A DNA stretch of 64,000 nt from Acidobacteriaceae bacterium (GCA_030041435.1 JASHNW010000115.1:38921-102920), one strand, 5' to 3'; positions 9,296 to 42,289 are shown, counted from the stretch's first letter. The notes: generated by a model from the letters alone, not told the origin. Numbers and translations are program-made.

Positions 9296-9304
9296 GGATT
9301 ACCT

Positions 9305-9637
9305 CTAAACTGCCTTCAATGCATTGGCCATCGCCAGAGCGACTCTTGCCCATTGCTCCCTCTCGACTTCCAGCTGGGCCTTTCCGGCTTTTGTGATCCG
9401 GTAGTATTTGGCGCGGCGATTATTTTCAGATTCGCCCCAGAAGGAGCTCAGCCACCCTGCCTCCTCCAGACGGTGCAGTGCGGGGAAGAGCGAGCCTGGT
9501 TTCACAAGGAATGTCCCCTGAGTGATTTGCTCGATGCGGCGCGAGACCCCCAGGCCGTGCAGTTCTCCCGTGCTGAGCGACTTGAGGATGAGCAGATCGA
9601 GCGTGCCCTGCAGCAGACTGGTTGGTTCGGCGCTCAC
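9305..9637 (-). CDS. PadR family transcriptional regulator (acidobacterial type, paired with ADOP)
   Basis: 110 aa with a winged-helix PadR signature (LQGTLDLLILKSLSTGELHGLGVSRRIEQITQG..PGSLFPALHRLEEAGWL). GTG start with GGGGAG upstream. Confidence 0.9.
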   Translation of the reverse strand: MSAEPTSLLQGTLDLLILKSLSTGELHGLGVSRRIEQITQGTFLVKPGSLFPALHRLEEAGWLSSFWGESENNRRAKYYRITKAGKAQLEVEREQWARVALAMANALKAV

Positions 9638-27719: not shown

Positions 27720-27987
27720 GAGGCTGTTATTAACTTTCGCACGACCGGCGCTGAGAGCCCATTTTCCTCAGTTCGAGGAGCGAGGAGCGACAGATACCGA
27801 GTGTATCTTAGCGACGAGCGACGACGAAATGGGGAAAATGGGCCCCAGCCCTGCGGGTTGCGGGGGAAAATCGGGCCATACTTCATTCTCGCCCTCGACA
27901 GTGGACCCGCCACAGCCTTCGGGCTCGGCTTCGTCTGGCCCGATTTTCCCTCGCAACGCCGGCCGCGGGAAAGTTAATAACAGCCTC
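27720..27987. repeat. 268-bp MITE-like / highly structured palindromic element
   Basis: Perfect 19-bp terminal inverted repeats GAGGCTGTTATTAACTTTC (27720-27738) and GAAAGTTAATAACAGCCTC (27969-27987). Inside are four copies of GGGAAAAT(C)GGGCC arranged as two nested hairpins. Confidence 0.55.
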
Positions 27988-30776
27988 TAGCGGTCCGCCT
28001 TCTCCGGCAACCCCGCCGTGATCATCGGCAGCCCCGTCACCGGCCAGTGGCTCACCTCCGCGTCCACGTTCGCCGCCAGCGCGCAGTCTGCGTTCACCAC
28101 CGGATCCACGTCGACGTTCCAGCCATCCACCACCACCACCGGTTCGCCGCCCTGCAAATCGCTCAGCGCCGCATCGATGTGGATCGTTCTGCTCTCTCCC
28201 GGCGCCAGCGAAACGTAGTTATCCGAATAGAACACCGGCAGCACCCGCGGCGCCCCCAGCGCCTGATCCTCGAGCCCCGCCGCGGTCACCTCCGCGCCCG
28301 CGCTCAGCCGCCGCAGCTGCACGTGCGCCAGCAGCGCCATGTTCCGCCCCGGATTCGTCAGCGTCACGTCCAGCCCCAGCCTTCCGTTGGCATCCTGCCG
28401 CGTAATCGCCGCCGTCAGCTTTTCCGGCGGCATCCAGTCCATCCGCGTCAGGTCCTGCCCCGCCGCGGGACTCGGCTTCCAGTACAGATTCCGCGACACC
28501 ACCTTCCCCTGCGCATCCTTCAGCTGCAGATCCACAAAATAAACCGACGGCACGTACCGCGGCATCGGCACGCCCCCCAGATCGATGGCCGTATCCGCCG
28601 GCCCGCTCACCGGAATGTCCTTCTGCACCATCGCCTGCGCCGAGTCGCTCCAGTAGCTCAGGCCCCACACCGTCACGTGCGCTGTGTCTCCCTCAATCGC
28701 CACCGGCAGGTTGTTAATCACCTGCAGCTCGTCGTTCGCCTCGTCCATCTGAATGTGCACCGGCTCCGCCGCCTCTTTCACCGCAAACAGCGACGCATTC
28801 GGCTCCAGATCGTACGCGTAGAGCTGCCACACAAAGCTCGGCTGCGCCGGATTGCTCATCCACGTAATGATCCCCGTGTCCGGCCTGAACAGATACGCAT
28901 TCCGCCCCTCGTACATGGCGCGATACGCCTCGTAGTTCATCATCTGCGCCTTGCGCACAAAGTCCGCCAGGTTTGCCACCCTCCCGTATCGCGCCCGCAG
29001 CGCATACGGATACCGGTCGCCCTCCGACGCGCCCTTGGCCAGATCGTGCGCGCCCCAGTCGTCGTCGATCGTCTCCCAGTCCTTCTCCGGCATCATGGCG
29101 TGGATCGACTCGATCGTCGGCACGCTCACGCTCCCCGTCTCCGTCTTGAACGGCGCATCCTGCGCGTAGTACGCCTCCGGATCGCGCCAGTCGTACGGCC
29201 CGCCGCTCATCACCCCGCGCCCCGCCGTCGAGCTCGGCTGGTAGAGCCGCGCCGGATCCAGCTCCGGAATCATCTTCGACAGCGCATCGTGAATCGCCGG
29301 CGGCGGATATCCCTCGTTCCGCGCGCACCACAGCGCAATCGACGGATGATTCCTGTAGCGCAGAATCTTGTCCTTCACGTTTGCCAGATAAATATCCAGA
29401 TCGTCCGGATTCGGCCCGTCGCTCGGGTTCGGCTGGAAAAATTCATCCCAGATCAATATCCCGTACTGGTCGCACAGCTCGTAGAAATCCTCGCTCGTGC
29501 TCTGCCCCACCCAGTTGCGGATCATGTTCATGTTCGCCAGCGCGTGCATGTGGATCTCCGCGTCCAGCCGCGCCCGCGGAATCCGCTTCAGCGCCTCGTC
29601 CAGCCCCCAGTCGCCGCCGCGGATGAACACCTTCACACCGTTCACGCTGATGGTCAGCGCATCCATCCCGCCATAGGTAATCTTCCTGATGCCAAATTGC
29701 GTCTCCGTCGCGTCCGAATCCCGCCCATGCTCGACGAAATGTAAGTGCAGCTGATACAAATTCTGCGGCCCGTACCCGTTCGGCCACCACAGCTTCGGAT
29801 TCTCCACGTGCAGCGCTGCCGCCGTCTTCGCATCGAAGCTCACCGCCAGCGTGCTCACCGGCTTCAGCGTCACCGGCTGCCGAAACACAATCCCCGGCGT
29901 CCCCGGTTGCGACGGCAGCGGCTCGATCTCCCCCACCACCTCGCCCTTCACCTCTTTGCCCGACGTGTTCTCCAGCGTCGCCTTCACCGTCAAATCCGCT
30001 GAGTCCGTCCGCGGCAGCGGCAAATCGGTAATCACCAGCGGATCCTCCACCAGCACCGGCCCGCTCGCGCTCAGCCACACCTTCTGCCACAGCCCGGTAT
30101 CGCGGTCCCGCACCGCGTTCAGCCAGTCCCACCCAATCGTCGAGAGAAACGTCGGCCCGTCAATCGCCGTAATCCCGCCGTTCTTCCCCAGCCCGTTCGC
30201 AATGTCGTGCTCGTGCGGCACGCCCGGATGCGGCTGCGGGCTCACCTTCACCGCCACCACCGCCGTCTCCCCCGCCCGCACCAGCTTGGTAATGTCGAAC
30301 CGGCCGCGGATAAACGCGCCCTGGATCGTTCCCACCTGGGTCCCGTTCACCCACACCTCGCTCGTAAAATTGGCCCCGTCAAAGTGCAGCCACACCTGCC
30401 GGTGCCCGTACGCCCGCGGCACCGTCACCGTCGTCCGATACCACCAAGCCGTCTTGTTCAGGCTCTCCGGTATCGAGCGGTTGTTCTCGCCGTACAGCGG
30501 CTCCGGATACACCCCGTCCGCCACCAGATTGGCCTCCACTGTCCCCGGCACCGTCGCCGCATACCACCCCTCGGGCGTGAACGCCGCCGTCGACACCACC
30601 GACGGAGCCGCGCTCACCTTCGCGCTGTCCTGCAGTTGCCACCCCGACCCCATCTCCACCACTGCCGGCAACGCGCCCCTGGACGTATCGTGCGCCGACC
30701 CGACCTGCGCCCACGCCCCGCTCGCCGCCGCCAGCAAAACCGCCAGCCCCGCCCAAGTTCTCTTTCCTGTGAACAC
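27987..30776 (-). CDS. glycoside hydrolase family 2 (exo-beta-D-glucosaminidase / beta-mannosidase-like), secreted
   Basis: GH2 sugar-binding, Ig-like and TIM-barrel order (..WVNGTQVG..; ..WCARNEGYPP..; ..ITWMSNPAQPSFVWQLY..). A GTG start at 30776 gives VFTGKRTWAGLAVLLAAASGAWAQ. The track start 30971 lies inside REP repeats. Confidence 0.8.
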   Translation of the reverse strand: MFTGKRTWAGLAVLLAAASGAWAQVGSAHDTSRGALPAVVEMGSGWQLQDSAKVSAAPSVVSTAAFTPEGWYAATVPGTVEANLVADGVYPEPLYGENNRSIPESLNKTAWWYRTTVTVPRAYGHRQVWLHFDGANFTSEVWVNGTQVGTIQGAFIRGRFDITKLVRAGETAVVAVKVSPQPHPGVPHEHDIANGLGKNGGITAIDGPTFLSTIGWDWLNAVRDRDTGLWQKVWLSASGPVLVEDPLVITDLPLPRTDSADLTVKATLENTSGKEVKGEVVGEIEPLPSQPGTPGIVFRQPVTLKPVSTLAVSFDAKTAAALHVENPKLWWPNGYGPQNLYQLHLHFVEHGRDSDATETQFGIRKITYGGMDALTISVNGVKVFIRGGDWGLDEALKRIPRARLDAEIHMHALANMNMIRNWVGQSTSEDFYELCDQYGILIWDEFFQPNPSDGPNPDDLDIYLANVKDKILRYRNHPSIALWCARNEGYPPPAIHDALSKMIPELDPARLYQPSSTAGRGVMSGGPYDWRDPEAYYAQDAPFKTETGSVSVPTIESIHAMMPEKDWETIDDDWGAHDLAKGASEGDRYPYALRARYGRVANLADFVRKAQMMNYEAYRAMYEGRNAYLFRPDTGIITWMSNPAQPSFVWQLYAYDLEPNASLFAVKEAAEPVHIQMDEANDELQVINNLPVAIEGDTAHVTVWGLSYWSDSAQAMVQKDIPVSGPADTAIDLGGVPMPRYVPSVYFVDLQLKDAQGKVVSRNLYWKPSPAAGQDLTRMDWMPPEKLTAAITRQDANGRLGLDVTLTNPGRNMALLAHVQLRRLSAGAEVTAAGLEDQALGAPRVLPVFYSDNYVSLAPGESRTIHIDAALSDLQGGEPVVVVDGWNVDVDPVVNADCALAANVDAEVSHWPVTGLPMITAGLPEKADR

Positions 30777-30838
30777 TCGCCCTCTTTTCCGAAACCAAAA
30801 GATTCCCTGCCACAGCAGGGCGTAAGTCGCTTTAAAAC

Positions 30839-30992
30839 GGCACGACTTCAATCCGGTGTCCCCGACGAGCATCCTCGTTGGGGTGGTAGTCGTGCCGCAA
30901 CGTCGTACCGCGCTTTGAAAGGGCACGGTTTCAGTCGTGCCGTAACGTCGTACCGCGTTTTGAAAGGGCACGGCTTCAGCCGTGCCGTAACC
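30839..30992. repeat. REP-like hairpin cluster with 2.3 tandem copies of a 45-nt unit
   Basis: Long hairpin GGCACGACT..AGTCGTGCC (30839-30896). 45-nt units at 30889-30933 and 30934-30978 match at 42 of 45 positions, each ending in a GGCACGG(T/C)TTCAG(T/C)CGTGCC hairpin, plus a partial third unit. Confidence 0.7.
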
Positions 30993-31201: not shown

Positions 31202-31404
31202 ACTGATCGCTGATCGCTGAGCTCTGAGCTCTGAGCCCTGAGCCCTGAGCTCTGAACGCTGAACGCTGAACGCTGATCGCTGATCGCTGTTCCCTGATCG
31301 CTGATCGCTGTTCCCTGAACGCTGAACGCTGATCGCTGAGCCCTGCGCTCTGCGCCCTGCGCTCTGCGCCCTGAGCCCTGCGCTCTGCGCCCTGATCGCT
31401 GGTC
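31202..31404. repeat. array of 29 tandem degenerate heptamers (N-CTG-NN-C)
   Basis: Read directly: ACTGATC GCTGATC GCTGAGC TCTGAGC ... CCTGATC GCTGGTC. CTG and the final C are invariant in all 29 units. Higher-order 21-nt (x2) and 14-nt (x2-3) sub-repeats are present. Confidence 0.95.
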
Positions 31405-31987: not shown

Positions 31988-32268
31988 CGTTCTCTCGTTC
32001 CCGGCTCAGGATCGAGCCCAGCCAGTGATTTTCGGCTTCCGCTCAGAAGACGGATGAAGTTCGAGGTTAGTTCCCTGCCGCAGCGACCGAAGAACACCGG
32101 TCCGGGTTCCCCACCCTCGTCCGCGGTTGTCTCGCAGACATCAGAACGTCACAAAGTGACGGGATTCCTGATAGCGAACTAGTCCCCAGGGCACAAGCCA
32201 GCTTAGACGCCGAGGCCACGCCACCCCACGACCATGCGATCCCGGCCGGACACGATGGTAACGCGCTC

Positions 32269-32298
32269 CCACTCAAGCCAACAATAGGCTTGAACGGG
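32269..32298. repeat. REP-type palindrome, same family (copy 2)
   Basis: CCACTCAAGCC-AACAATA-GGCTTGAACGGG, immediately upstream of the low-G+C ORF. Confidence 0.55.
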
Positions 32299-32351
32299 AC
32301 ACCCGCACGTATGTCAACAGGAAGATATCCGAGCCCTCTGCTTTACGTAAG

Positions 32352-33335
32352 GTGAGAGCAAGTGAGAGTATTTCGGGTATGGGAACGCGCTCGCGCAAAG
32401 GTAAAACTCGGAAGCCTTTGGCTTGGAAAACTGAAAGATTACTCACGGTATCTGGCCTTGGACTTGGCACCTCTCTTGCTCTGGTTGGAACGCTAGATAT
32501 ATTTCCCATCTATGTCAACTTGGTGGTTTATGCAGCATCTTTAATCTCCATCCTTTTCGGGTTTTGGAAGTGGGAGTGGATTGCGCACTGGGGGAAGCTA
32601 CAAAAGACTGTGACCCTGTTTATCGTATCTCTCGCATCCGCATGGGTGCTGTCATATCCAGTTAGGGAGCAATATGAGCGGGAAATAATGACGAATCTGG
32701 AATTCAAAGAGTCCAGCGAGCTTAGTTTTTGGAGGCAACAAATTATCCGGTATGATCTTGGTGGTTTCAGAGCTTATCTCACCTCTTTAGGGATTGCTGT
32801 TCCTTCTGACCTTCCCCCGTTTTCAATTTCTGGGCAAGGAATTGTAGGGACCCACACGCCCCCCGAAATGCCGATCTATCGAGGCGATCTGACGATAGGC
32901 AAACAGCAATTGGGAGACCGAACGGCCCCGACGATGGTTTACGGGAGCTTTGTTATAGAGAAGCTCTTTGAACATTCTCAAATTGCCCGAGGCGGCCCAT
33001 CATGGTTCCATCATTTCCTATTTGGCACGCAGATCGAGATGGCCACGAATCTCTATTTCAATTGGAGTTATTGGGGCAAGCGATCGCCCGCAATACCCAA
33101 TCCAGAAACGGGAATTTTGTGGGAGGTCCGCCAACAACTTGGCCAGGAGTATACGGACAAATTGATAGCCTCATTGTTGCTTGTAACCGCGGATACTCCA
33201 GATGAAGGGATCGCGACCGTGGGAGAGAACTTTTCAGTGGAGTTCAAAAGAAAGTTGGCCATAGCAGATAGCTTGGTTGAAAGTGATAAAGCGAATTGGC
33301 CCGTTATTCAAAAACTAGCGGAGCCGCTTCAGTAA
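32352..33335 (+). CDS. orphan membrane-associated hypothetical protein in a low-G+C patch
   Basis: 327-aa ORF with 2-3 N-terminal hydrophobic helices (..LGLGTSLALVGTLDIFPIYVNLVVYAASLISILFGFW..TVTLFIVSLASAWVL..). A/T-rich codon choice differs from every neighbour. Start uncertain; no family recognised. Confidence 0.5.
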   Translation: MRASESISGMGTRSRKGKTRKPLAWKTERLLTVSGLGLGTSLALVGTLDIFPIYVNLVVYAASLISILFGFWKWEWIAHWGKLQKTVTLFIVSLASAWVLSYPVREQYEREIMTNLEFKESSELSFWRQQIIRYDLGGFRAYLTSLGIAVPSDLPPFSISGQGIVGTHTPPEMPIYRGDLTIGKQQLGDRTAPTMVYGSFVIEKLFEHSQIARGGPSWFHHFLFGTQIEMATNLYFNWSYWGKRSPAIPNPETGILWEVRQQLGQEYTDKLIASLLLVTADTPDEGIATVGENFSVEFKRKLAIADSLVESDKANWPVIQKLAEPLQ

Positions 33336-33581
33336 GTATCATCCGGCAAAGCCGAAACCTTTACGGTTGCTGGCCCCTCAAAGGGGCCTGATCGCAACCG
33401 CTAAAAGCAAAAACAACGGCAAACGATTGAACGCAACTGAAGATCGAAACTGCAAAGACAAAAAGCAACTCCAGGAAGCGTCAAACATCTGCTGCCCCCC
33501 GGCAGAGCCGGGGGGCCTCCCCGCTTCGCTAGAGCCCGCTATTAACTTTGAGCGAGCATCCTGAACAGAGTGGCCGAGCGG

Positions 33582-33612
33582 CCCATGCAAGCCCTCCTTT
33601 GGCCTGAGCGGG
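33582..33612. repeat. REP-type palindrome, same family (copy 3, degenerate)
   Basis: CCCATGCAAGCC-CTCCTTT-GGCCTGAGCGGG. Confidence 0.45.
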
Positions 33613-33764
33613 CACGCCAAGCCCATTAACCTTCGTAGCCCCGCGCCCGCACAGTTCCCCGCGCCCGCACCCCTCCCGTCTCACCAGACTCAGACTCCTG
33701 GGGGATTGTCCGCCTGGCGGAGAATCCCCCTTCGCATTTCCGGGCGCAGTGAGTCCAACCGCGG

Positions 33765-33795
33765 CCCACGCAAGCCCTCTGCGGGCTTCAGTGGG
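33765..33795. repeat. REP-type palindrome, same family (copy 4)
   Basis: CCCACGCAAGCCC-TCTGC-GGGCTTCAGTGGG. Confidence 0.5.
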
Positions 33796-33945
33796 CTCCC
33801 GCCCCCAAAAACTGTCAACCCCCACACCTCTTCACCAAAGTAACCCCTCCTCATAACACAACACTTACACGCCAATAACCCCCAAAATAGTTGGCATACT
33901 TACTCGCTGGATCTGATATTCTGAACTTATAGAGTAGAAATTGAG

Positions 33946-33976
33946 AAAAGGACCGTCGCCGCGGTCCTTTTTCTTT
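33946..33976 (+). terminator. intrinsic-terminator-like hairpin placed directly before the RBS of the next gene
   Basis: AAAGGACCG-TCGCCG-CGGTCCTTT followed by TTCTTT. GGGAG (33980-33984) and the ATG at 33991 follow at once. A possible -35/-10 pair (TTGGCA 33891, GATATT 33915) lies upstream. Confidence 0.55.
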
Positions 33977-33990
33977 GCCGGGAGCTTCCC

Positions 33991-34458
33991 ATGGTCGCTG
34001 AATGCGCCTTCTTCTATCCCGACGGCCGCAGGTGCCGCCGCCTCCCCCGCCGCGGCGAAAGGTTATGCCGCGACCATCGCCATCTCACCTCGGCCCGTCC
34101 CAAAAACGACGAAGAAACCTTCGATCGGGAAATGACCCAGGCGGCCGGCGAGATCGCCGCCATGCCCCTCGACCAAATGCTCGATCACCTTCAGCAAGGC
34201 CTCATCTCCCTCCACTGGCTCATCGAAAGCCGCGCCTCCACCGCCGAGCGCAACGCCTACACCCGCGCCACCATCGCCGTCTCGGCCGCGATCGACTGTG
34301 TCCTCGAGCATCCACGCGTTCTCGCCAGCGTTCTGCCCAGCGCCCCACCCGAACACATCGAGTACCTCCTCCATCTGCTCCGTTTCGCCGAGCCCCAGGT
34401 CCCGCCCGATCCCCGGCTGCCCGATGAATCCGCCGGTCCGGCGGAGGAAACGCCGTAA
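33991..34458 (+). CDS. hypothetical protein with Cys/His-rich N-terminus
   Basis: 155 aa with GGGAG 7 nt upstream of the ATG. N-terminus CAFFYPDGRRCRRLPRRGERLCRDHRH, then a helical-looking remainder. No family recognised. Confidence 0.55.
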   Translation: MVAECAFFYPDGRRCRRLPRRGERLCRDHRHLTSARPKNDEETFDREMTQAAGEIAAMPLDQMLDHLQQGLISLHWLIESRASTAERNAYTRATIAVSAAIDCVLEHPRVLASVLPSAPPEHIEYLLHLLRFAEPQVPPDPRLPDESAGPAEETP

Positions 34459-34548: not shown

Positions 34549-35352
34549 TTACACAACCCGACCCACCAGCCGCAGGATCTCGTCCGCCGCGACCCTGGTG
34601 TCGGGCCGGAACCCCCGGTAGCACCGCGCCCCCGCCACCGCGCGGCCGAAGACCCCCAGCAACTCCGGCGACTCGGCCAGCACATGCGGGGTGTTGCGCA
34701 GCAGCGTCAGCAGCCCCTCGCTCTGCGGCACCGCGGCCACGTCCCACTCGCTCTCCGACCGATAGGCGAGCGCCAGGATCCACCCCACCGCCGCCGGCGC
34801 CTTCCCCGTCGCCGCGCCGCACGCCTCGGCCGTTACCGCCACCTGCTCCGGGCTCCCGTCCCGCAGCAGCAGCGGCCGCGGATAGGCATGCAGCCGTCCT
34901 TCCCCGTCGATCAGCGCATACTCATCGGAGTAGTAAGTCGCTCCCCGCCGCAGCAGCTCCGCCACCAGCGACGACTTCCCCGCATGCGTCCCGCCCGGCA
35001 GCAGCAGCCCTCGACCCGCCCACCCCACCGCGCCCGCATGGACCGCCCGCAGCCCCGTCAGCCGCCCGATCACCGCCTCATCCACCGCCCGGACGATCTC
35101 CGGCACGAGAAAATTCGGGTCCGCCGCCGACGCGACCACCCTCTCCCCCACCAACAGCCGCACCCGGCCCCCGCTCTGCTCCGCGCGCAGCACCACATCC
35201 GGCTCGCCATTGGTGGGGCTTCTGGTGAAGGAAGGAAAGATGCTCCTGTCGAGCAGATCGCAGCACTCGCGGCAGTCGGCCGCCGCTCGAATGCTGCATC
35301 CGAAGGCCTGCACTTCAAACGTGTAGGTGTCAGACATAGGGGGAGGCGCCAT
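34549..35352 (-). CDS. HPr-kinase-related P-loop protein (HprK-related kinase, RiPP-accessory type)
   Basis: Walker A GGTHAGKSS followed by ..LLRRGATYYSDEYALIDGEGRLHAYPRPLLL.., resembling the HprK C-terminal domain-like kinases seen next to PqqD genes. An alternative start lies at MSDTY (35337). Confidence 0.7.
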   Translation of the reverse strand: MAPPPMSDTYTFEVQAFGCSIRAAADCRECCDLLDRSIFPSFTRSPTNGEPDVVLRAEQSGGRVRLLVGERVVASAADPNFLVPEIVRAVDEAVIGRLTGLRAVHAGAVGWAGRGLLLPGGTHAGKSSLVAELLRRGATYYSDEYALIDGEGRLHAYPRPLLLRDGSPEQVAVTAEACGAATGKAPAAVGWILALAYRSESEWDVAAVPQSEGLLTLLRNTPHVLAESPELLGVFGRAVAGARCYRGFRPDTRVAADEILRLVGRVV

Positions 35353-35367
35353 TCCAGCCCGGAATGG
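35349..35367 (-). promoter_or_regulatory. hairpin sequestering the kinase start codon
   Basis: Minus strand reads CCATTCC-GGGCT-GGAATGG (perfect 7-bp stem). The ATG at 35352-35350 lies in the 3' arm. Located 13 nt after the stop of the small ORF. Confidence 0.5.
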
Positions 35368-35379
35368 CAGTGTCTCAGT

Positions 35380-35463
35380 TTACACGCATCTCCAGCCGTC
35401 GCCGCAGTTGCGGTTCACACAGACACAGGCATCAGGCCTGGCACAGCCCGCGCCGATACTCAT
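35380..35463 (-). CDS. speculative 27-codon Cys-rich small ORF (candidate precursor/substrate peptide)
   Basis: Hand translation gives MSIGAGCARPDACVCVNRNCGDGWRCV then TAA. AGGAA ends 4 nt before the ATG. It sits in the 134-nt gap between the PqqD-like and kinase genes (a 23-nt spacer upstream, 27 nt downstream) and is absent from the ORF track, whose shortest listed ORF is 60 aa. Confidence 0.35.
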   Translation of the reverse strand: MSIGAGCARPDACVCVNRNCGDGWRCV

Positions 35464-35486
35464 CCAGTTCCTGACTTATGCCGCGA

Positions 35487-35942
35487 TCAATAAGAAGCGT
35501 GTGGAGGGGCCGGATCCTGTGGAGGCTGCGGCAGGTGCTCCACGGGCGGCTGCGCGCACGAAACGGACTGCACCGCGTAGGCCCGCTGTTCCGTCATGGT
35601 CAGCGAGACGACCAGCGGCAGAGCCGCCGCCGCGCTCAGCTTCCCGATGAACGCACGCCGCGAAGACTGCGGCGCCGCTCCGGAAGTCTTCACCAGGTTC
35701 TGGTCGCGCAGTTGCCGAATCGCCTCCTCGGCGAGTTCGGTCTCGATGCTCGGGTCCAGCGACCGCCGCATTGTTTCCGTCACTCCGGAGAGAGTCGTCG
35801 GATCGCTGCACGCCTCCCAGGCCGCGCCAGCGGTTGCGTTCATGGCAACGATCGTCTCGTTGCGTTCATCGACAAGGATTCTCGATCCGTCGGGCAGCTT
35901 GCTCTCTACAAGTCCATCCATCGGCACGCGCTCAACATCCAT
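35487..35942 (-). CDS. PqqD-family (RiPP recognition element-like) protein with hydrophobic/Tat-like and Pro-rich C-terminal extension
   Basis: GGAGG lies 6 nt upstream of the ATG. Residues ~10-85 (..SRILVDERNETIVAMNATAGAAWEACSDPTTLSGVTETMRRSL..AEEAIRQLRDQNLV) resemble PqqD. The tail is SSRRAFIGKLSAAAALPLVVSL..CAQPPVEHLPQPPQDPAPPHASY. Confidence 0.7.
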   Translation of the reverse strand: MDVERVPMDGLVESKLPDGSRILVDERNETIVAMNATAGAAWEACSDPTTLSGVTETMRRSLDPSIETELAEEAIRQLRDQNLVKTSGAAPQSSRRAFIGKLSAAAALPLVVSLTMTEQRAYAVQSVSCAQPPVEHLPQPPQDPAPPHASY

Positions 35943-36341
35943 CGCTACCTCCCACTATCGTGGCCCTGACGCTGGGTCATGCGACGCGAGCTGGGGTTTG
36001 CTCACCTCGTGCCTGCATGGTAATCGTCAGTCTAGCTTCCCGGCTCCCCGCGTGGATATGAGCCGATGGTAATAAAAATGGCTTTCTGGTAACCGTGATT
36101 ACTGGGTACCTATGTGCAACTTTCTTCACCTCTGCTCCCGGAGACATTTCTGGATGCACATGCAGCGGTAAGCTAACATCCGCGCGGCGGACCCACTTTC
36201 GTGGGATAGCCACCGTATCGTTACTAAAGTCAAAATGACGCGGAATCGCCCTGTGCAGTTCTCGAGGGCTAACACTGGAACGATGACTCCACTCCCCCCA
36301 TTGCCCGCTCGCTGCCTGCCGCAAGCCATCGCAGCCGCACG

Positions 36342-37523
36342 GTGGCTGTTCTGATGCCTGCCGATCGCGACTGCTGCGCGCTGTTGCTGGCGGTTGCCCG
36401 CTATTCCGCTCGCGGAGACTCCGCGCAGGTCCGCACTCTGGCCGCAAAGGTCTCCGACTGGGACGCTCTTCTCAATCTGGCCCAATGGCATCGCGTGATG
36501 CCGATGCTATACCGCGTTTTCGCGGAGACAGACGCTGTGGTACCGGCCGCCGTGCAGGATCGCCTGCTGGCCGAGCACCGGCGGAATGTCTGTCAGAACC
36601 TGGCCAATGCGGCAGAACTTATCGCCGTACTCCACGCGTTCGACCGGGAAGATATCCGGGCTATGCCCTTCAAGGGCGTTGTGCTGGCAGCATCCGCATA
36701 CAAGGACCTCATGGCGCGCCCGGGCGGCGATCTGGACATCCTGATCCGCCTGGAGGACTTCTCGCGAGCCATGCCGCTTCTCCTCGCTCGCGGCTATCAG
36801 CCGATGCGGGAGTCCGGTGTGGAAGGAATGACGGCCCCGCCCGACTGGTGCGAATATCCTTTCGTCCGCCCGCGCGACGGTATGATGCTCGAACTTCGCT
36901 GGCGACTCAGCCTGGTTCCGGGAAGGTACTCACGCGCTCTCGGCCTCGACTGGGCATGGCGCCACCGCCGCACGGCTGTGCTGGCGGGCGCAGAAGTTCC
37001 GGACATGAGCCCCGAAACAACGCTGTTGATGCTCTGCATGCATGGCAGCAAGCACATCGTCCAGGGCAGCAAACATATGTGGTCCCGGCTCATCTGGATC
37101 TGCGATGTCGCGCAGTTGCTGGCTGCCTGCCCCGGCCTCGACTGGAAGCACGCAATAGCGGAAGCCAGGCGCCAGGGGTTAGGTCGCTCTCTGGCTCTTG
37201 GGGTGCTGCTGGCCCATCGCGTCGCCGGCGCCGAGATCCCCCGGAAAGTTCTCCGTTCCTTTGAGCGCGATGCAGCCGCGACCGGGCTGGCCACCCACTT
37301 CGAGAAGAACCTGTTCGAAATGCCCGGCGCGGTACCTGCCGGCCGCGTACCGTACAGCATCCAGTTACTTGCCTGGCGCGACCGCCTGAAGATCTTCCTG
37401 TCGCGGGATTTCCTGCGTCCCAACGAGCGAGACCTTGCAGCGCTCAGGCTGCCGGCCCCGCTCTACCCTCTCTACTATCTCGTCCGTCCGCTGCGTATCT
37501 TCCGCGATCGCTCGGCGCGATAG
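36342..37523 (+). CDS. nucleotidyltransferase family protein (PF14907-like 'uncharacterised nucleotidyltransferase')
   Basis: ..CCALLLAVARYSARGD..DWDALLNLAQWHRVMPMLYRV..FKGVVLAASAY..RPGGDLDILI..ELRWRL..YYLVRPLRIF.. follows the family pattern as I recall it. Start is the GTG at 36342 or the ATG at 36354. Confidence 0.7.
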   Translation: MAVLMPADRDCCALLLAVARYSARGDSAQVRTLAAKVSDWDALLNLAQWHRVMPMLYRVFAETDAVVPAAVQDRLLAEHRRNVCQNLANAAELIAVLHAFDREDIRAMPFKGVVLAASAYKDLMARPGGDLDILIRLEDFSRAMPLLLARGYQPMRESGVEGMTAPPDWCEYPFVRPRDGMMLELRWRLSLVPGRYSRALGLDWAWRHRRTAVLAGAEVPDMSPETTLLMLCMHGSKHIVQGSKHMWSRLIWICDVAQLLAACPGLDWKHAIAEARRQGLGRSLALGVLLAHRVAGAEIPRKVLRSFERDAAATGLATHFEKNLFEMPGAVPAGRVPYSIQLLAWRDRLKIFLSRDFLRPNERDLAALRLPAPLYPLYYLVRPLRIFRDRSAR

Positions 37524-39101
37524 GCGCGCGATAGCCTCTGGCCCCATCCCGGACGTAAATCCGGTAACCAAACGGCGGCGCCGGCTTGCCCATCCACTCC
37601 GCCGGGAGGGGCGGAATGCGGTCGGCGTATAACGAGTAGTTATTCGCGAGAAAGCCATCGAATGCCGGCCACTGATGCAGCTCGCAGTATTGATAGTTCA
37701 TTGGCGAAGTACCGCACTGGTGACTGGTGACGACAAAGACACGAGGGGGATGTTCCGTAATCTCGGCCCAGAACCTGTTGCGCAGCTTTTCCACCGCCGG
37801 GTCGTCCACCGGCATAAAGAAGTAACAATCGTACAGAACGCCGGTCGCCTGTTCCAGCTGCATGCGATAGAGAACATTCAGGCAGCCCGCAGCCATATCG
37901 AGGCATTGCACCTGGCCGTCCAGGCGCTGTCCTCCCAGCTGCTGCAAATCGGCCTGCAGCATTGTGTCGAAGGCATCGTCGCGCCAGTCAAAGCGAATTG
38001 CCTTCGCCGCTGAGCCGATGCCAATCACGAAGACTCCATAACACAGCGCGGTGGCCGCAAACAGACGCGCTGTTCCCGGCCAGCGAGAATCCGCGGATTT
38101 CAATGCAGCCGTGCAATCGATACCCACGATGAGGAGCAGCAGCACCTCGGACGGATATCGGTGATAGGCATATCCCTTGCCCTGCAGAAAGAACGAAGCA
38201 AATCCCGCGAGCACGCCGATGCACAAGGCCGCTCCCTTCCAGGTTCGCCAAAACCCGGTTGAAAGCGCCACCGGAATCCATATCGCAATCATCGGCAACA
38301 GTACGGAAGATATGCAATGAGAGAGGAGATACGAGCTCGACTGACGCCGGAGCTGGGCGTGTTGTGAATCCAGATGGAGAAGGATGGTGAAGAACGCCGA
38401 TGCCGCATGTTCGTGCAGCAGGTAACCCATGGCAATGCCCCACGGCAGCGCCAGCGACACGGCACCCGCCACCAGAAGCCACACCACTGGAAGGCCCTTT
38501 TTCATCCGATGAAGGCATGCCAGCGCCAGCAAAGCAGGCCCGAGTGGCAATATGGTGGGCTTGACCGCCGCGGCAGCTCCGATACACACGCCAAAGAGCA
38601 CGACGGCCCCTATACATTCGCGGCCCTCCTCGGTCGCGCGAAAGTACCGGAACAGGAAGATATAAGCTGCGAGAACCAGGACCGCGACAAAAAGATCGCG
38701 CTGGCCCAGGTCGATTAGTCCGTCGCGGCCATGGATCAGCGTGAACAGTATCCCTGCAAACGCCCCCCCCGCAAACCGCCCAAGGGCCGGGCGAGCACCA
38801 TCATCGCCGCCGTGGCCAGTCCGCACAAACTCAGGTCGAACAGGCGCCAGGCCAGCGCGCCGCCGCCGAAAAGGTGAATCACCAGCCCCTCGATCGCATA
38901 CGTGCCCGGCATATTGATGTCCACAATATCCCGGTACGGAACCAGGCCGCGGCCGATCAGAAATACGACGTAATGCATGAGGGGAGCATCGCCCACCAGC
39001 GGCCAATGCCATGTGCGCACCACAAAAACAATGACGCTGCACGCAAGGACGCCAAGAAGGCTGGTCAGCAGCCAACTGCTGAAGTTCTGCCTGGAAGGCA
39101 T
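37444..39101 (-). pseudogene. GT-C-fold membrane glycosyltransferase-like gene (ArnT/PMT/GT87-like) interrupted by a frameshift at a G8 tract
   Basis: The N-terminal piece (39101->38736) and the long piece (frame of 37444..39075) join at C8 on the + strand (38763-38770). One extra G restores a single ~550-aa polytopic protein. The first-loop motif GDAPLMHYV..GLVPYRDIVDINMPG is GT-C-like. Confidence 0.6.
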
Positions 39102-39226: not shown

Positions 39227-41935
39227 TTACTCAGCCTTCAGCACTTCCGCGGGATCGACTCCCGCCGCTCGGCAAGCCGGCAGATAGCTGGCCACTGCCG
39301 CCGCCGCCGCGAGGACCAGCGGGATCGTCACATAGGTCAGCGGATCGAATGGGCTGATGCCAAACAGCAGCGACTTCATCATCCGCATCACTCCCGCTGC
39401 GGTGCACAGGCCGATGACCACGCCGATTCCGGTGAGCACCAGCGCAGAGCGGACGATCATCCAGCGCAGTTCGGCCTTTTGCGCGCCCAGTGCCAGGCGA
39501 ATGCCGATTTCGCGCCGCCGCTGCGAGACTGTATACGAGATGACACCGTAGATGCCGACCACCCCGAGCAGAAGCGCCATCGATCCCGCAATCGCCAGCA
39601 TCACCAGCGTGAACGAGGTGCGGGCCATGGAACGGTTGCTGAGATCCTGCATCGTGTACACCGACGCCAGGGGCAGGTCTCCGTTCACGGACCAGACCGC
39701 CTGTTGCAGACGGTCGATGAAGTCCTGCTGACCGGCGCGGCTGCTGCGAACGGCGAAGGTGGCGGAGTTCGGTCCGTCGACGGCCGGTGTCGGCGAGTAC
39801 GGATCCTTCAGCATCGCTGGCCAGTAGATGACGGCAGGCGCTTTTTCATCCACACCGTGGACGCGCACGTCTTCGACCACGCCGATAACCTCCAGCCACG
39901 GCGTGCTGGAGAACTGGCGAACCCGTTTTCCGACAGCGGCGGCAGCCGAACCCCACGATTCGCGCGCAAAGTTCTCCGATACCATCACCATCGGCCGCAG
40001 GCCGTAGATGTCGGCCCAGGTGAAGTCGCGGCCCGCCACCAGGCGCGTGCCCATGGCGCGGAAATAACCGGGTGAGACGTAGTTGAACAGGCGCAGGGGT
40101 GGTTCGCCCCCGTCGTAGGTCTTCCCTTCCACGCGAACCTCGTCCCAGTTGGGGTCGTCGCCATCCATGGGCACGGCCGCTGCGAAGCCCACCGCGGTCA
40201 CTCCGGGGATGGCTGCGATTTGAGCGGCGATGTTGTTCTGCGTGTGGGTCACCAGCAATGGATCGGCGATGAGCGTGTTCGGAATCGAGATCGTCATCGT
40301 CTGAAGGTGGGCTGGGTCGGAGAAGCCAGGCTCGACGCTGCGCAATGCGGCAAAGGTTCGGATCATGAGCAGCGCGCTCACCAGCAGCACCAGCGCCATC
40401 GCCGTCTGCGCGATGACCAGCAGGTTGCGGGACCGCTGGGGCGCGCGGCCCACGGTGGCCGTCCGGCTGCTGCCGCCCATGGCCAGCGTGGCGCCGCCCC
40501 TTGCGTACTTCCATACCGGGATGGAGCCAAAGAACAGCCCGCAGAAAACGGAAAGCAGAAGGGTGAAGAGGAGCGAGCGGGCGTCGAGCGAAACCTCGCT
40601 GAGGCGAGGAAGGCTGGCGGGGCCGGAAGCCACGAGGAAGCGCAATCCCGCATCGGCAACGCCAACCGCGAGTGCGCCGCCGGCAATCCCGAGCGCGACG
40701 CTCTCCAGCAGCAGTTCGCGGGCGATGCGCGCCCGCCCTGCGCCCAATGCTGCGCGGATGGACAACTCATGCTGCCGCGACTCCGCGCGGACCAGCAGGA
40801 GGTTCGCAATGTTCGTGCACGCGATCAGCAGAACGATGCCAACCGTGGCCATGACCACCCACAGCACGCTGCTCACGTTCCCGATCACCTGCTGCCGCAG
40901 CGAGAGAAAATTCGGACGAATCCTCCAGACCCTGTAGAAGTGCGGATTGGTGCCTGGGCCGTTCGTCCAGGAGTCCATCCAGACAGGAATGAGGCGCGCG
41001 ATGTCGGCATCGGCCTGCGCCAGCGAGACGCCCGGTTTGAGCCGCCCGATGCCGTCATAGCCGAAGGGGGCGAGCTTCTGATGGACCCGATCCAGGGCCA
41101 TCGGAAGGAGGAGATCGAAATCCCGGTCGGCCACGCGGAAGCCGCGCGGCATGACGCCCACGATCTCGCGCGACTGCGCATCGACGTGGAGGATGCGTCC
41201 TATCACGCCCGGATCGCCGCCAAACCGGCGCTGCCAGTAGCCGTAGCTGAGCATGACCGTTTTGGCGCCGCGCGGATCCTGCTCGCTCTGCGAAAACCAA
41301 TGGCCCAGCTGGGGCGGAACCTCAAGGGTCTGCAGGATGCCGTCGCTGACGAGGTCGGTGCGCACCTGTTCGGGGTGGGCCACACCGGTGACATTGGCTG
41401 TGCCGGGCGCCCAGATACCCATGGACTGGAAGGTCTGGTTGTGCTCGGAAAACGTGATGTACATCGATGGTGAAAGCTGAAGACCGTTGGAAAAATTCGC
41501 CAGCCCTCCGGCGCCGGGAGCATCGAGCCAGAGAGCGGCGATTCGGTCGGAGTGCGGATATTGCAGCGGCCTCAGAACAACGCGATTGAGCACGGCGAAG
41601 ATGGCCGTGTTCGCGCCGATACCGATCGCCAGCGTAATCAGGATGGTCGCCGTGAGGCCCGGAGACCTTCCCATGCGGCGAAGGGTCAGCTTCAGGTCGG
41701 TCAGGAGAGACTCGAGCGCAGACCACTGCCACGCTTCGCGGCTGCGCTGCTCAATCAGGGTGACGTTGCCGAACGCGCGGCGCGCGGCCTGCTCCGCCTG
41801 AGCCCGCGGCATGCCCTCTTCCATCAGCTCTTCGGTTTTCTCCGCGATGTGCTCCTCGATGGAGATGGAGAGATCGTCGTAGCGCCGGCGGCGCGAGAAG
41901 GAGCGGCTTACGCGGGAAAAGTTGAAACGGGGCAT
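39227..41935 (-). CDS. ADOP family duplicated permease (second copy)
   Basis: 902 aa with the same architecture as 6641-9295 (prefix helix region, 2 x [TM + periplasmic domain + FtsX 3TM]). Starts 9 nt after its PadR partner. Confidence 0.85.
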   Translation of the reverse strand: MPRFNFSRVSRSFSRRRRYDDLSISIEEHIAEKTEELMEEGMPRAQAEQAARRAFGNVTLIEQRSREAWQWSALESLLTDLKLTLRRMGRSPGLTATILITLAIGIGANTAIFAVLNRVVLRPLQYPHSDRIAALWLDAPGAGGLANFSNGLQLSPSMYITFSEHNQTFQSMGIWAPGTANVTGVAHPEQVRTDLVSDGILQTLEVPPQLGHWFSQSEQDPRGAKTVMLSYGYWQRRFGGDPGVIGRILHVDAQSREIVGVMPRGFRVADRDFDLLLPMALDRVHQKLAPFGYDGIGRLKPGVSLAQADADIARLIPVWMDSWTNGPGTNPHFYRVWRIRPNFLSLRQQVIGNVSSVLWVVMATVGIVLLIACTNIANLLLVRAESRQHELSIRAALGAGRARIARELLLESVALGIAGGALAVGVADAGLRFLVASGPASLPRLSEVSLDARSLLFTLLLSVFCGLFFGSIPVWKYARGGATLAMGGSSRTATVGRAPQRSRNLLVIAQTAMALVLLVSALLMIRTFAALRSVEPGFSDPAHLQTMTISIPNTLIADPLLVTHTQNNIAAQIAAIPGVTAVGFAAAVPMDGDDPNWDEVRVEGKTYDGGEPPLRLFNYVSPGYFRAMGTRLVAGRDFTWADIYGLRPMVMVSENFARESWGSAAAAVGKRVRQFSSTPWLEVIGVVEDVRVHGVDEKAPAVIYWPAMLKDPYSPTPAVDGPNSATFAVRSSRAGQQDFIDRLQQAVWSVNGDLPLASVYTMQDLSNRSMARTSFTLVMLAIAGSMALLLGVVGIYGVISYTVSQRRREIGIRLALGAQKAELRWMIVRSALVLTGIGVVIGLCTAAGVMRMMKSLLFGISPFDPLTYVTIPLVLAAAAAVASYLPACRAAGVDPAEVLKAE

Positions 41936-41944
41936 GGCGGGCTC

Positions 41945-42289
41945 CTACGTTCTCGCAAACGCTAAGACGCGGCTGATGCCGGTTGTCATCTGTTCGAAGC
42001 TGGACAGCTCCTGCTCCAGATGGCGGAGTCCGGCGCTGGTCAGCCGGTAGATTCGGGTGGGGCGTCCCTTGGCAGAGATCCCTGTCTCCGCCTCGAGCCA
42101 TCGCTCCCGCAACATCCGCTGCAGGGCCGGATACAACGAGCCCTCCTCGATCTGGAGCAGATCGTCAGACACCTGCTGGATGTGTTTCACCAGCGCATAG
42201 CCGTGCATAGGCGCGAGGCGGAGCGACTGGAGGATCATCATCTCCAGCGCGCCGGGAAAGAGGTCGCGGCGTTCGGATTTATTTGCCAT
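41945..42289 (-). CDS. PadR family transcriptional regulator (second copy)
   Basis: 114 aa (..FPGALEMMILQSLRLAPMHGYALVKHIQQVSDD..EGSLYPALQRMLRERWL..). Confidence 0.9.
   Translation of the reverse strand: MANKSERRDLFPGALEMMILQSLRLAPMHGYALVKHIQQVSDDLLQIEEGSLYPALQRMLRERWLEAETGISAKGRPTRIYRLTSAGLRHLEQELSSFEQMTTGISRVLAFART

Follow-up and report, generated by a model that had tools for sequence, protein, structure and literature searches.

In the clusters that produce paeninodin and pseudomycoidin, both lasso peptides, a kinase of the HprK superfamily (PadeK and PsmK, respectively) phosphorylates the linear precursor on a serine, and the addition of one or two hexoses to that phosphate requires PsmN, an 'uncharacterised nucleotidyltransferase' (PMC6993621, PMC9266682). 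We analysed a three-gene cassette at positions 34,549-37,523 of a 64,000-nt stretch of DNA from an Acidobacteriaceae bacterium (GCA_030041435.1 JASHNW010000115.1:38921-102920; hereafter the window). Like these clusters, the cassette combines an HprK-superfamily kinase, an 'uncharacterised nucleotidyltransferase' (family PF14907) and a PqqD-fold RiPP recognition element (RRE; RiPP, ribosomally synthesized peptide with post-translational modifications), but it lacks the cyclase, the B2 protease and the ABC exporter of lasso clusters. An earlier reading of the locus from its sequence only (the sequence-only reading) had described a PqqD-like gene, a 27-codon Cys-rich open reading frame (ORF) and a kinase-like gene on one strand, with a divergent nucleotidyltransferase gene, and had seen in them a module of unknown chemistry. 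These ORFs are all present, as are the 23 nt between the PqqD stop and the 27-codon ORF, the 27 nt between that ORF and the kinase open frame, and the strings quoted from the proteins (GGTHAGKSS, YYSDEYALIDGEGRLHAYPRPL, CCALLLAVARYS, DWDALLNLAQWHRVMPMLY and GGDLDILI). The PqqD-like protein does contain a PqqD domain but is no free-standing chaperone: the domain is fused to a signal-like segment, a conserved serine (Ser128) and a hypervariable tail, which the sequence-only reading had missed. From this architecture it follows that the PqqD protein is itself a likely substrate of the cassette, and the chemistry gains a concrete candidate site.

The fusion was analysed in an alignment of 120 database relatives together with all copies from the loci described below, and motifs were counted over 209 unique sequences. 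Its N-terminal domain matches the PqqD family (Table 1) and finds its closest PDB match in the lasso RRE TbiB1 with a leader peptide (5v1v; TMt 0.69, root-mean-square deviation 2.9 Å). The 151-aa protein has no NCBIfam match at E <= 0.1, TIGR04353 included, and on a paralogue the lasso model NF033536 (lasso_PqqD_Bac), whose cut-off is 80 bits, scored 18.6. In the source databases these proteins are named only 'PqqD family protein' or 'hypothetical'.

The segment following the domain runs S-R-R-A-F-I-G-K, an uncharged stretch (median 20 residues, range 12-22) and E-Q-R-A-Y-A. Residues R95, R96, A107, P109, V111, Q119, A121 and A123 are invariant; the full motif was found in 199 of the 209 unique sequences, with AxA in 187 of these 199. 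Signals of the twin-arginine translocation (Tat) pathway combine a motif resembling S/T-R-R-x-F-L-K with an h-region of moderate hydrophobicity, a basic c-region and AxA. The segment has the composition of such a signal, with an RR motif, a modestly hydrophobic h-region, a basic c-region residue and AxA, and the 151-aa ORF contains no internal start codon ahead of RR95/96.

Conservation drops behind this segment: compared pairwise, the RRE domain averages 66.7% identity and the RR..AxA segment 62.3%, but the tail 18.6%. Ser128 lies just ahead of the tail (Table 1) and is, by analogy with the targets of PsmK and PadeK (PMC6993621, PMC9266682), the candidate phospho-acceptor. The part after AxA has a median length of 27 residues and, beyond Ser128, consists of 27.9% Pro. 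Several tail families recur across genomes: tails ending in GILGWLLGLLGL (WLLGLLGL; 29 sequences) or in WW (14), tails with a Cys-x(2-9)-Cys loop such as KPCATAVPCK (40), polyproline tails with runs of up to ~40 residues (25) and xAHVSRP-type tails (26). We take some tails, for example LVASSRPRPHPTPPPPPPPPPIRLPRLF and IVARSTPPKPTPPPPPKPAPAPILPLR (P0129, P0133, P0165 and L030 9396-9842), to be reminiscent of proline-rich antimicrobial peptides of the apidaecin/oncocin type. In 13 of 75 loci, two to four fusion genes with differing tail types stand in tandem. Because a conserved leader (62-67% identity) precedes a variable core (18.6%), several copies occur and two enzymes are encoded in synteny, the fusion carries the signature of a RiPP precursor. 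No other conserved candidate substrate was found in the operon, where the spacer between the fusion and kinase genes holds no conserved ORF.

As a database copy of the kinase (P0001) is 262 aa long and 100% identical, we place its start at 35337 rather than at 35352. The kinase scored 15.6 bits against PF07475 (Hpr_kinase_C; cut-off 33.3) and 15.9 bits against TIGR00679 (cut-off 240), reaching neither. The best-scoring curated model for the family was TIGR04352, 'HprK-related kinase A', with 39.4 bits for the window's kinase (3.6e-10) and 47-67 bits for its relatives against a cut-off of 200, while ScmC (TIGR04249, PF27840) and HprK_rel_B (TIGR04355) gave weak matches of 16-25 bits against cut-offs of 125-200. 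Membership in HprK/P, TIGR04352/TIGR04353, ScmC and HprK_rel_B was ruled out on these scores, which lie far under the cut-offs. The fold tells more: the AlphaFold model of the kinase (predicted local distance difference test, pLDDT, 91.8) matched phosphoenolpyruvate carboxykinase (PEPCK; TMq up to 0.59) and HprK/P (TMt ~0.53) in Foldseek with a probability of 1.00, and the matches include L. casei HprK/P-HPr complexes. Moreover, six residues do not vary across 37 relatives: G120 and K121 of the P-loop, the histidines H100 and H118, and the aspartates D138 and D144. This fold match and these invariant residues place the modelled kinase in the HprK/PEPCK superfamily, outside any curated family. 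Hundreds of relatives share 45-80% identity with it.

The divergent gene encodes a clear member of PF14907 (NTP_transf_5; 189 bits, 1.4e-55, cut-off 31.2), in which G129, D130 and D132 of the G-D-x-D motif and D179 are at least 95% conserved among 69 orthologues. Searches of PDB sequences with the kinase profile and the transferase returned chance-level matches only (a KaiC P-loop at E 0.13 and a metacaspase at E 0.9), and for the kinase the fold search alone was informative. Thus, of the family assignments in the sequence-only reading, those to PF14907 and to PF05402 held, and the kinase fell below the HprK cut-offs although its fold matches. In PsmN, the double mutation D134A/D136A abolishes the addition of hexose to the phospho-serine (PMC6993621), and by analogy the enzyme of the window is probably PsmN-like.

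A scan of species-representative genomes yielded 79 loci from Acidobacteriaceae, Bryobacterales and other Terriglobia, and 82 kinase-seeded loci were analysed with 10-kb flanks; their ORFs were called, searched with profiles and clustered all-against-all. Only three families recur: the kinase is present in all 82 loci, the PqqD-type protein in 80 (102 copies) and PF14907 in 71. In nearly all loci that have it, the PqqD-type gene shares the strand of the kinase gene and sits just upstream of it. The transferase gene is usually divergent and upstream, with 74 of 78 ORFs on the opposite strand, and it lies downstream on the same strand in four loci. This arrangement is far beyond chance. Across the 82 loci no transporter, protease or Tat component is conserved near the cassette, and what else was found consists of shadow ORFs and lineage-specific neighbours, among them chitobiase-like repeat proteins and a DAO oxidoreductase. 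The cassette is an autonomous, self-contained module, in line with the earlier view that it is not a piece of a known RiPP pathway, and its gene order is kept across loci, as that view required; the small ORF is not. Its cultured carriers, Edaphobacter aggregans, Tunturiibacter psychrotolerans, T. gelidiferens and Acidobacterium sp. S8, make it directly testable.

We propose, at a probability of roughly one half, that the PqqD protein is its own substrate, which would be phosphorylated and phospho-glycosylated in the cytoplasm, as by PsmK and PsmN, and then exported and cleaved. The RRE-fold domain (residues 1-88) would hold the protein's own segment 93-123, recruit the enzymes, or both. The HprK/PEPCK-fold kinase would phosphorylate a serine, most likely Ser128, and the PF14907 enzyme would extend this phosphate with a hexose or a nucleotide-activated group, like PsmN on the phospho-serine of pseudomycoidin. 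The twin-arginine/uncharged/AxA segment would then direct export via the general Tat (or Sec) machinery, and signal peptidase would cut after AYA123, freeing a modified peptide of ~28 residues, VQSVSCAQPPVEHLPQPPQDPAPPHASY. In related clades, poly-Thr linkers and surface domains follow the same leader, and dedicated glycosyltransferases of the GT2 and GT25 families accompany the kinase or take its place.

Several points weigh against this proposal. The domain architecture, conservation pattern, synteny, folds and intact catalytic motifs were shown, and it is from these that we infer the fusion as substrate, the phosphotransfer to a peptide, the acceptor residue, the chemistry and the export with cleavage; by sequence, the resemblance of the kinase to HprK is weak. 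The co-occurrence figures presuppose the kinase, which served as the seed for the loci. In 11 of the 82 loci PF14907 was not found, and one locus (L090) encodes a PqqD fusion without a kinase. Lasso kinases target a C-terminal serine, and a C-terminal serine is not conserved in the tails of the fusion. The other points concern export. The RR pair lies at residues 95-96, behind a folded domain of 88 residues, unlike the N-terminal position of classical Tat signals. The segment is conserved like the domain itself (62% versus 67%), which is unusual for signal peptides; its hydrophobic stretch is far more conserved than their usual h-regions, and two sets of invariant residues, A107/P109/V111 and Q119/A121/A123, show a period of two. 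Residues 111-115 (VVSLT) form a β-strand rather than a helix in the AlphaFold model. Since the remaining strands of the 151-aa model all lie within residues 2-87, this strand would have to pair with the RRE domain, as leader peptides do; the contact is read from the DSSP strand assignment alone, and the docking from the best of five models (pLDDT 80.5, 72.5, 72.3, 64.8 and 56.5).

Given the high conservation, the period-two invariants and a strand in place of a helix, the segment may be solely a cis-bound recognition sequence. The fusion would still be the substrate, RR...AxA would serve only for recognition in cis, and the product would remain in the cytoplasm or be exported by an unlinked protease and transporter. 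This is the main rival to our proposal, and we consider it unlikely. In combination, the invariant RR, the 12-22 uncharged residues and an AxA preceded by a basic residue fit a Tat signal, and neither a protease nor a transporter accompanies the cassette. Export gains further support from distant relatives, which carry domains typical of surface proteins (SpaA, apparently IPT-like, Peptidase_S74) behind RR...AxA....S. We favour a dual role of the segment, in which the RRE would bind its own signal/recognition strand in cis until modification is done, as Tat signal-binding chaperones do.

These distant relatives were recovered in an exhaustive profile search, which gave 2127 matches at E <= 1e-3 and 226 clusters (50% identity) at E <= 1e-10. 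Behind the RR...AxA....S motif they have poly-Thr linkers and then SpaA/Cna-B-like, apparently IPT-like or Peptidase_S74 domains. In locus L087 (335-1702), two genes lie in tandem, and each encodes a protein with a Peptidase_S74 domain (intramolecular chaperone) at its C-terminal end; as the second, P0297, starts with a PqqD-RR-AxA leader, the leader may also serve larger passenger domains. In L068 (12206-13090), a PqqD-RR-AxA-Ser protein continues into a poly-Thr linker of ~50 residues and a C-terminal domain of ~100 residues, and its gene is found downstream, rather than upstream, of those for the kinase and PF14907.

In Bryobacterales, four loci contain open frames of ~700-820 aa with GT2 and GT25 domains (L009 6540-8633, L010 8660-10780, L046 6556-8646 and L062 6522-8981; the domains were checked against Pfam for L009, L010 and L062). 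The kinase domain lies inside this frame in L010 and L062 and ~1.4 kb downstream of it in L009, and the fusion tails in the GT2/GT25 clades are Thr-rich. An orthologous GT2 stands between the fusion gene and the kinase in L086 and L089, and in L090 a fusion with a Thr/Pro-rich tail is paired with the orthologous GT2 alone. As judged from gene content, a link to glycosylation is thus independently visible in related clades, where dedicated GT2/GT25 enzymes appear to join or replace the kinase. More tentatively, and with the odds somewhat against it, the family could represent an undescribed Acidobacteriota class of exported phospho-glycosylated peptides and surface proteins. Here, an RRE domain serving as the leader and joined in cis to a twin-arginine signal would bring in the kinase, the transferase and the glycosyltransferases and would mask the export signal until modification, with Tat and signal peptidase replacing a dedicated protease and transporter.

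The same protein could be imagined as a membrane-anchored adaptor, an uncleaved single-pass PqqD protein, its N-terminus inside and its short tail outside, that tethers the kinase and transferase at the membrane while these act on another substrate (for example a glycan of the envelope, a sugar linked to a lipid or an unlinked peptide). The ~20-residue uncharged stretch after RR could indeed span a membrane, glycosyltransferases are common neighbours, and the PF14907 and HprK-like folds may here have targets other than peptides. An adaptor, however, leaves unexplained why copies with different tails stand in tandem, why tail families recur and why some tails have grown into whole domains; in addition, the serine at +5 is invariant and the RRE fold is a peptide-binding module, so that we regard this role as improbable.

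Table 1 Features of the cassette, in window coordinates
Feature	Position	Strand	Size or basis
PqqD-like ORF (fusion gene)	35487-35942	-	151 aa
PqqD/RRE-fold domain, residues 1-88	35679-35942	-	PF05402 25.4 bits vs 23.4; pLDDT ~85-93
Twin-arginine signal-like/recognition segment, residues 93-123, SSRRAFIGKLSAAAALPLVVSLTMTEQRAYA	35574-35666	-	invariant residues, alignment
Ser128 codon, candidate phospho-acceptor	35559-35561	-	Ser at +5 from AxA in 198/199; invariant in alignment
Predicted released peptide, residues 124-151, VQSVSCAQPPVEHLPQPPQDPAPPHASY; hypervariable tail, residues 129-151	35490-35573	-	conservation drop
Structured non-coding spacer, fusion gene to kinase gene	35338-35486	-	folding z-scores, no conserved ORF
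27-codon Cys-rich ORF, MSIGAGCARPDACVCVNRNCGDGWRCV	35380-35463	-	judged not a gene
Kinase-like ORF, HprK/PEPCK-fold P-loop kinase-like	open frame 34549-35352, gene 34549-35337	-	262 aa
Divergent intergenic region, fusion/kinase operon versus transferase gene	35943-36341	.	
PF14907 nucleotidyltransferase-fold enzyme, probably PsmN-like	36342-37523	+	393 aa, divergent

The spacer between the fusion and kinase genes behaves as structured RNA. The stretch 35330-35500, which contains it, folds at -69.5 kcal/mol (z = -2.66), and across 65 loci the mean z-score of the spacer is -1.84, with 28 loci below -2. In RiPP operons, a stem-loop is probably common between a highly expressed precursor gene and the genes of its enzymes. 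The median spacer length over the loci is 187 nt, and the short ORFs that can be read in them are unrelated between loci. While the spacer diverges elsewhere, two blocks of it are identical between the window (35338-35379) and L088 (4795-4813), GTGTAAACTGAG and, directly at the kinase start codon, CTCCCCCTATG; no obvious Shine-Dalgarno sequence was found at these blocks.

The 27-codon ORF within this spacer had been counted as a member of the operon in the sequence-only reading, an assignment that the comparison overturned. Its peptide has no relatives in 74 other spacers, and in L088, the closest non-identical relative (kinase 79% and PqqD protein ~86% identical), the same position holds an unrelated 27-aa frame, MPAPAFHGPGAGLLLWPSLPSRVKCVN as opposed to MSIGAGCARPDACVCVNRNCGDGWRCV in the window. 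Being unconserved even there, the ORF is not a gene in our judgement, and it was rejected as a precursor. This bears on the pathway that the sequence-only reading implied, in which a free RRE would present a separate small precursor, encoded by the 27-codon ORF or by an unlinked gene, to the kinase and transferase. Lasso B1 proteins work in this manner (PMC9266682), and in the window an ORF does stand between the two genes. With the other spacers devoid of a related ORF, a spacer that behaves as structured RNA, and a conserved extension and variable tail of the PqqD protein left unexplained, we regard such a pathway as very improbable.

To describe the surroundings of the cassette, 51 ORFs of the window, nearly every credible gene of the 64 kb, were scanned against Pfam; these were ORFs of at least 80 aa that passed a filter on GC content at third codon positions (GC3). 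In agreement with the sequence-only reading, which had seen no RiPP core enzyme here, the 51 ORFs include no Asn-synthetase-like lasso cyclase, no transglutaminase-like B2 protease and no radical-SAM/SPASM, YcaO or lanthipeptide enzyme, and no such family recurs in the 82 loci with their flanks. That the cassette is a lasso-peptide cluster decayed by loss of its cyclase and protease is effectively refuted. Clusters of the paeninodin/pseudomycoidin type do count an HprK-like kinase, a PqqD RRE and a PsmN-type transferase among their accessory genes (PMC6993621). However, ~70 species-level genomes hold all three genes intact and in synteny, with no cyclase or B2 family recurring in the 10-kb flanks; the catalytic residues are conserved, and everything other than the three families is lineage-specific.

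The divergent intergenic region presumably contains the promoters. A consensus scan returned no sigma-70-like sites in the intergenic regions of the cassette, this one included. Terminator-like sites numbered two, below the 2.7 that chance would give, and both fall within coding sequence. The gene converging on the PF14907 gene (37444-39075, minus strand), with which it overlaps by 80 nt at the 3' ends, encodes a 543-aa multi-pass membrane protein with weak PMT_2/PMT (GT-C-like) matches. In L004 and L005, whose kinase is identical to that of the window, a 522-aa gene takes its position. The 543-aa protein was rejected as a member of the cassette, as it clusters with none of the 25 most widespread families across the loci.

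The other neighbours in the window are unremarkable and encode glycoside hydrolases, two permease pairs of the PadR/MacB type, ClpB, TPR proteins, TonB-type barrels and a two-component system. The permease pairs, each a PadR regulator followed by a large MacB_PCD/FtsX permease, lie at 6641-9637 (884 aa) and 39227-42289 (902 aa). Across 32001-34000, adjoining the cassette, GC content is 0.533 compared with ~0.62-0.67 on either side, and this stretch may be a foreign insertion; the 327-aa ORF at 32352-33335 has no match in Pfam or NCBIfam. A heptanucleotide tandem array (CTGATCG / CTGAGCG / CTGCGCC) of ~28 units spans 200 nt at 31203-31401, between a GH2 gene and a DUF4410 gene. The long GH2 ORF occupies 27987-30971, its longest possible start being GTG, and a 45-nt direct repeat (2.3 copies, 93% identity) at 30888-30991 covers its 5' end and the sequence just upstream, causing peptide strings to recur in several frames.

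RRE domains are characteristic of RiPP pathways, where they are known either within enzymes or as free-standing chaperones to which a separate leader binds. If our proposal is correct, an RRE fold that is part of the substrate and is combined with a general-secretion signal would constitute a new organisation of leader-guided modification, and would explain how a RiPP-like pathway can do without a protease and an exporter of its own. The cassette also offers a route to HprK-type peptide kinases and PsmN/PF14907 enzymes outside lasso peptides, with Ser128 as the candidate acceptor. The family is large, with kinase-seeded loci in 79 species-level genomes, and belongs to a dominant, little-studied soil phylum. 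Its hundreds of distinct short tails (Pro-rich, Cys-bridged, Trp-rich or hydrophobic) may act as signals, antimicrobials or surface decorations.

Finally, we compared the cassette with the systems it most resembles. Besides the missing enzymes mentioned above, it differs from lasso clusters in having an RRE joined to the putative substrate rather than a free one. The candidate serine is internal, five residues past AxA, and not C-terminal, and the leader holds a twin-arginine signal-like segment; by sequence, neither the lasso PqqD model nor the HprK models come near their cut-offs. The HPr-rel-A system (TIGR04352 and TIGR04353) is a pair of an HprK-like protein and a PqqD-family protein with no assigned function. 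The sequence-only reading had mentioned it in connection with the locus, but the scores do not bear out membership: the kinase family reaches 39-67 bits on TIGR04352 against the required 200, and TIGR04353 does not match the PqqD protein. ScmC (SynChlorMet) and HprK-related kinase B are HprK-like proteins in peptide-modification cassettes built on radical-SAM/SPASM enzymes, whereas the present cassette has no such enzyme.

Glycocins and serine-rich-repeat glycoproteins are Ser/Thr-rich ribosomal products that receive their O-linked sugars in the cytoplasm, from GT2-type or dedicated glycosyltransferases, and are exported afterwards; serine-rich-repeat proteins also have unusually long N-terminal signal regions of ~90 residues. 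These systems use double-glycine leaders with ABC transporters, or accessory Sec, and we know of no RRE domain, HprK-like kinase or PF14907 enzyme in them. TorD/DmsD-type chaperones are cytoplasmic modules that bind a twin-arginine signal until maturation is complete, and in Rieske proteins twin-arginine motifs that are not N-terminal can still drive Tat-dependent translocation. In the cassette, unlike the TorD/DmsD systems, the putative signal-binding module is an RRE fused in cis and the cargo would be a short modified peptide rather than a cofactor-bearing enzyme.

For the proposed route as a whole, the nearest parallel is found in the bufferins, MNIO-modified RiPPs whose precursors carry a signal peptide for general Sec export, a feature reported to be rare among RiPPs; they, too, combine cytoplasmic modification with general secretion and cleavage by signal peptidase, with no dedicated exporter or protease (PMC11626156). 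Their signal, however, is N-terminal and of the Sec type, their precursors have no RRE domain and their chemistry is that of thiooxazoles. Searches of full-text literature turned up neither a precursor that contains an RRE-fold domain nor a twin-arginine RiPP leader, nor any account of this Acidobacterial cassette. Taken together, the cassette is best seen as a variation on RRE-guided tailoring by an HprK-type kinase and a PsmN-type enzyme, with a real chance that it forms a distinct class.

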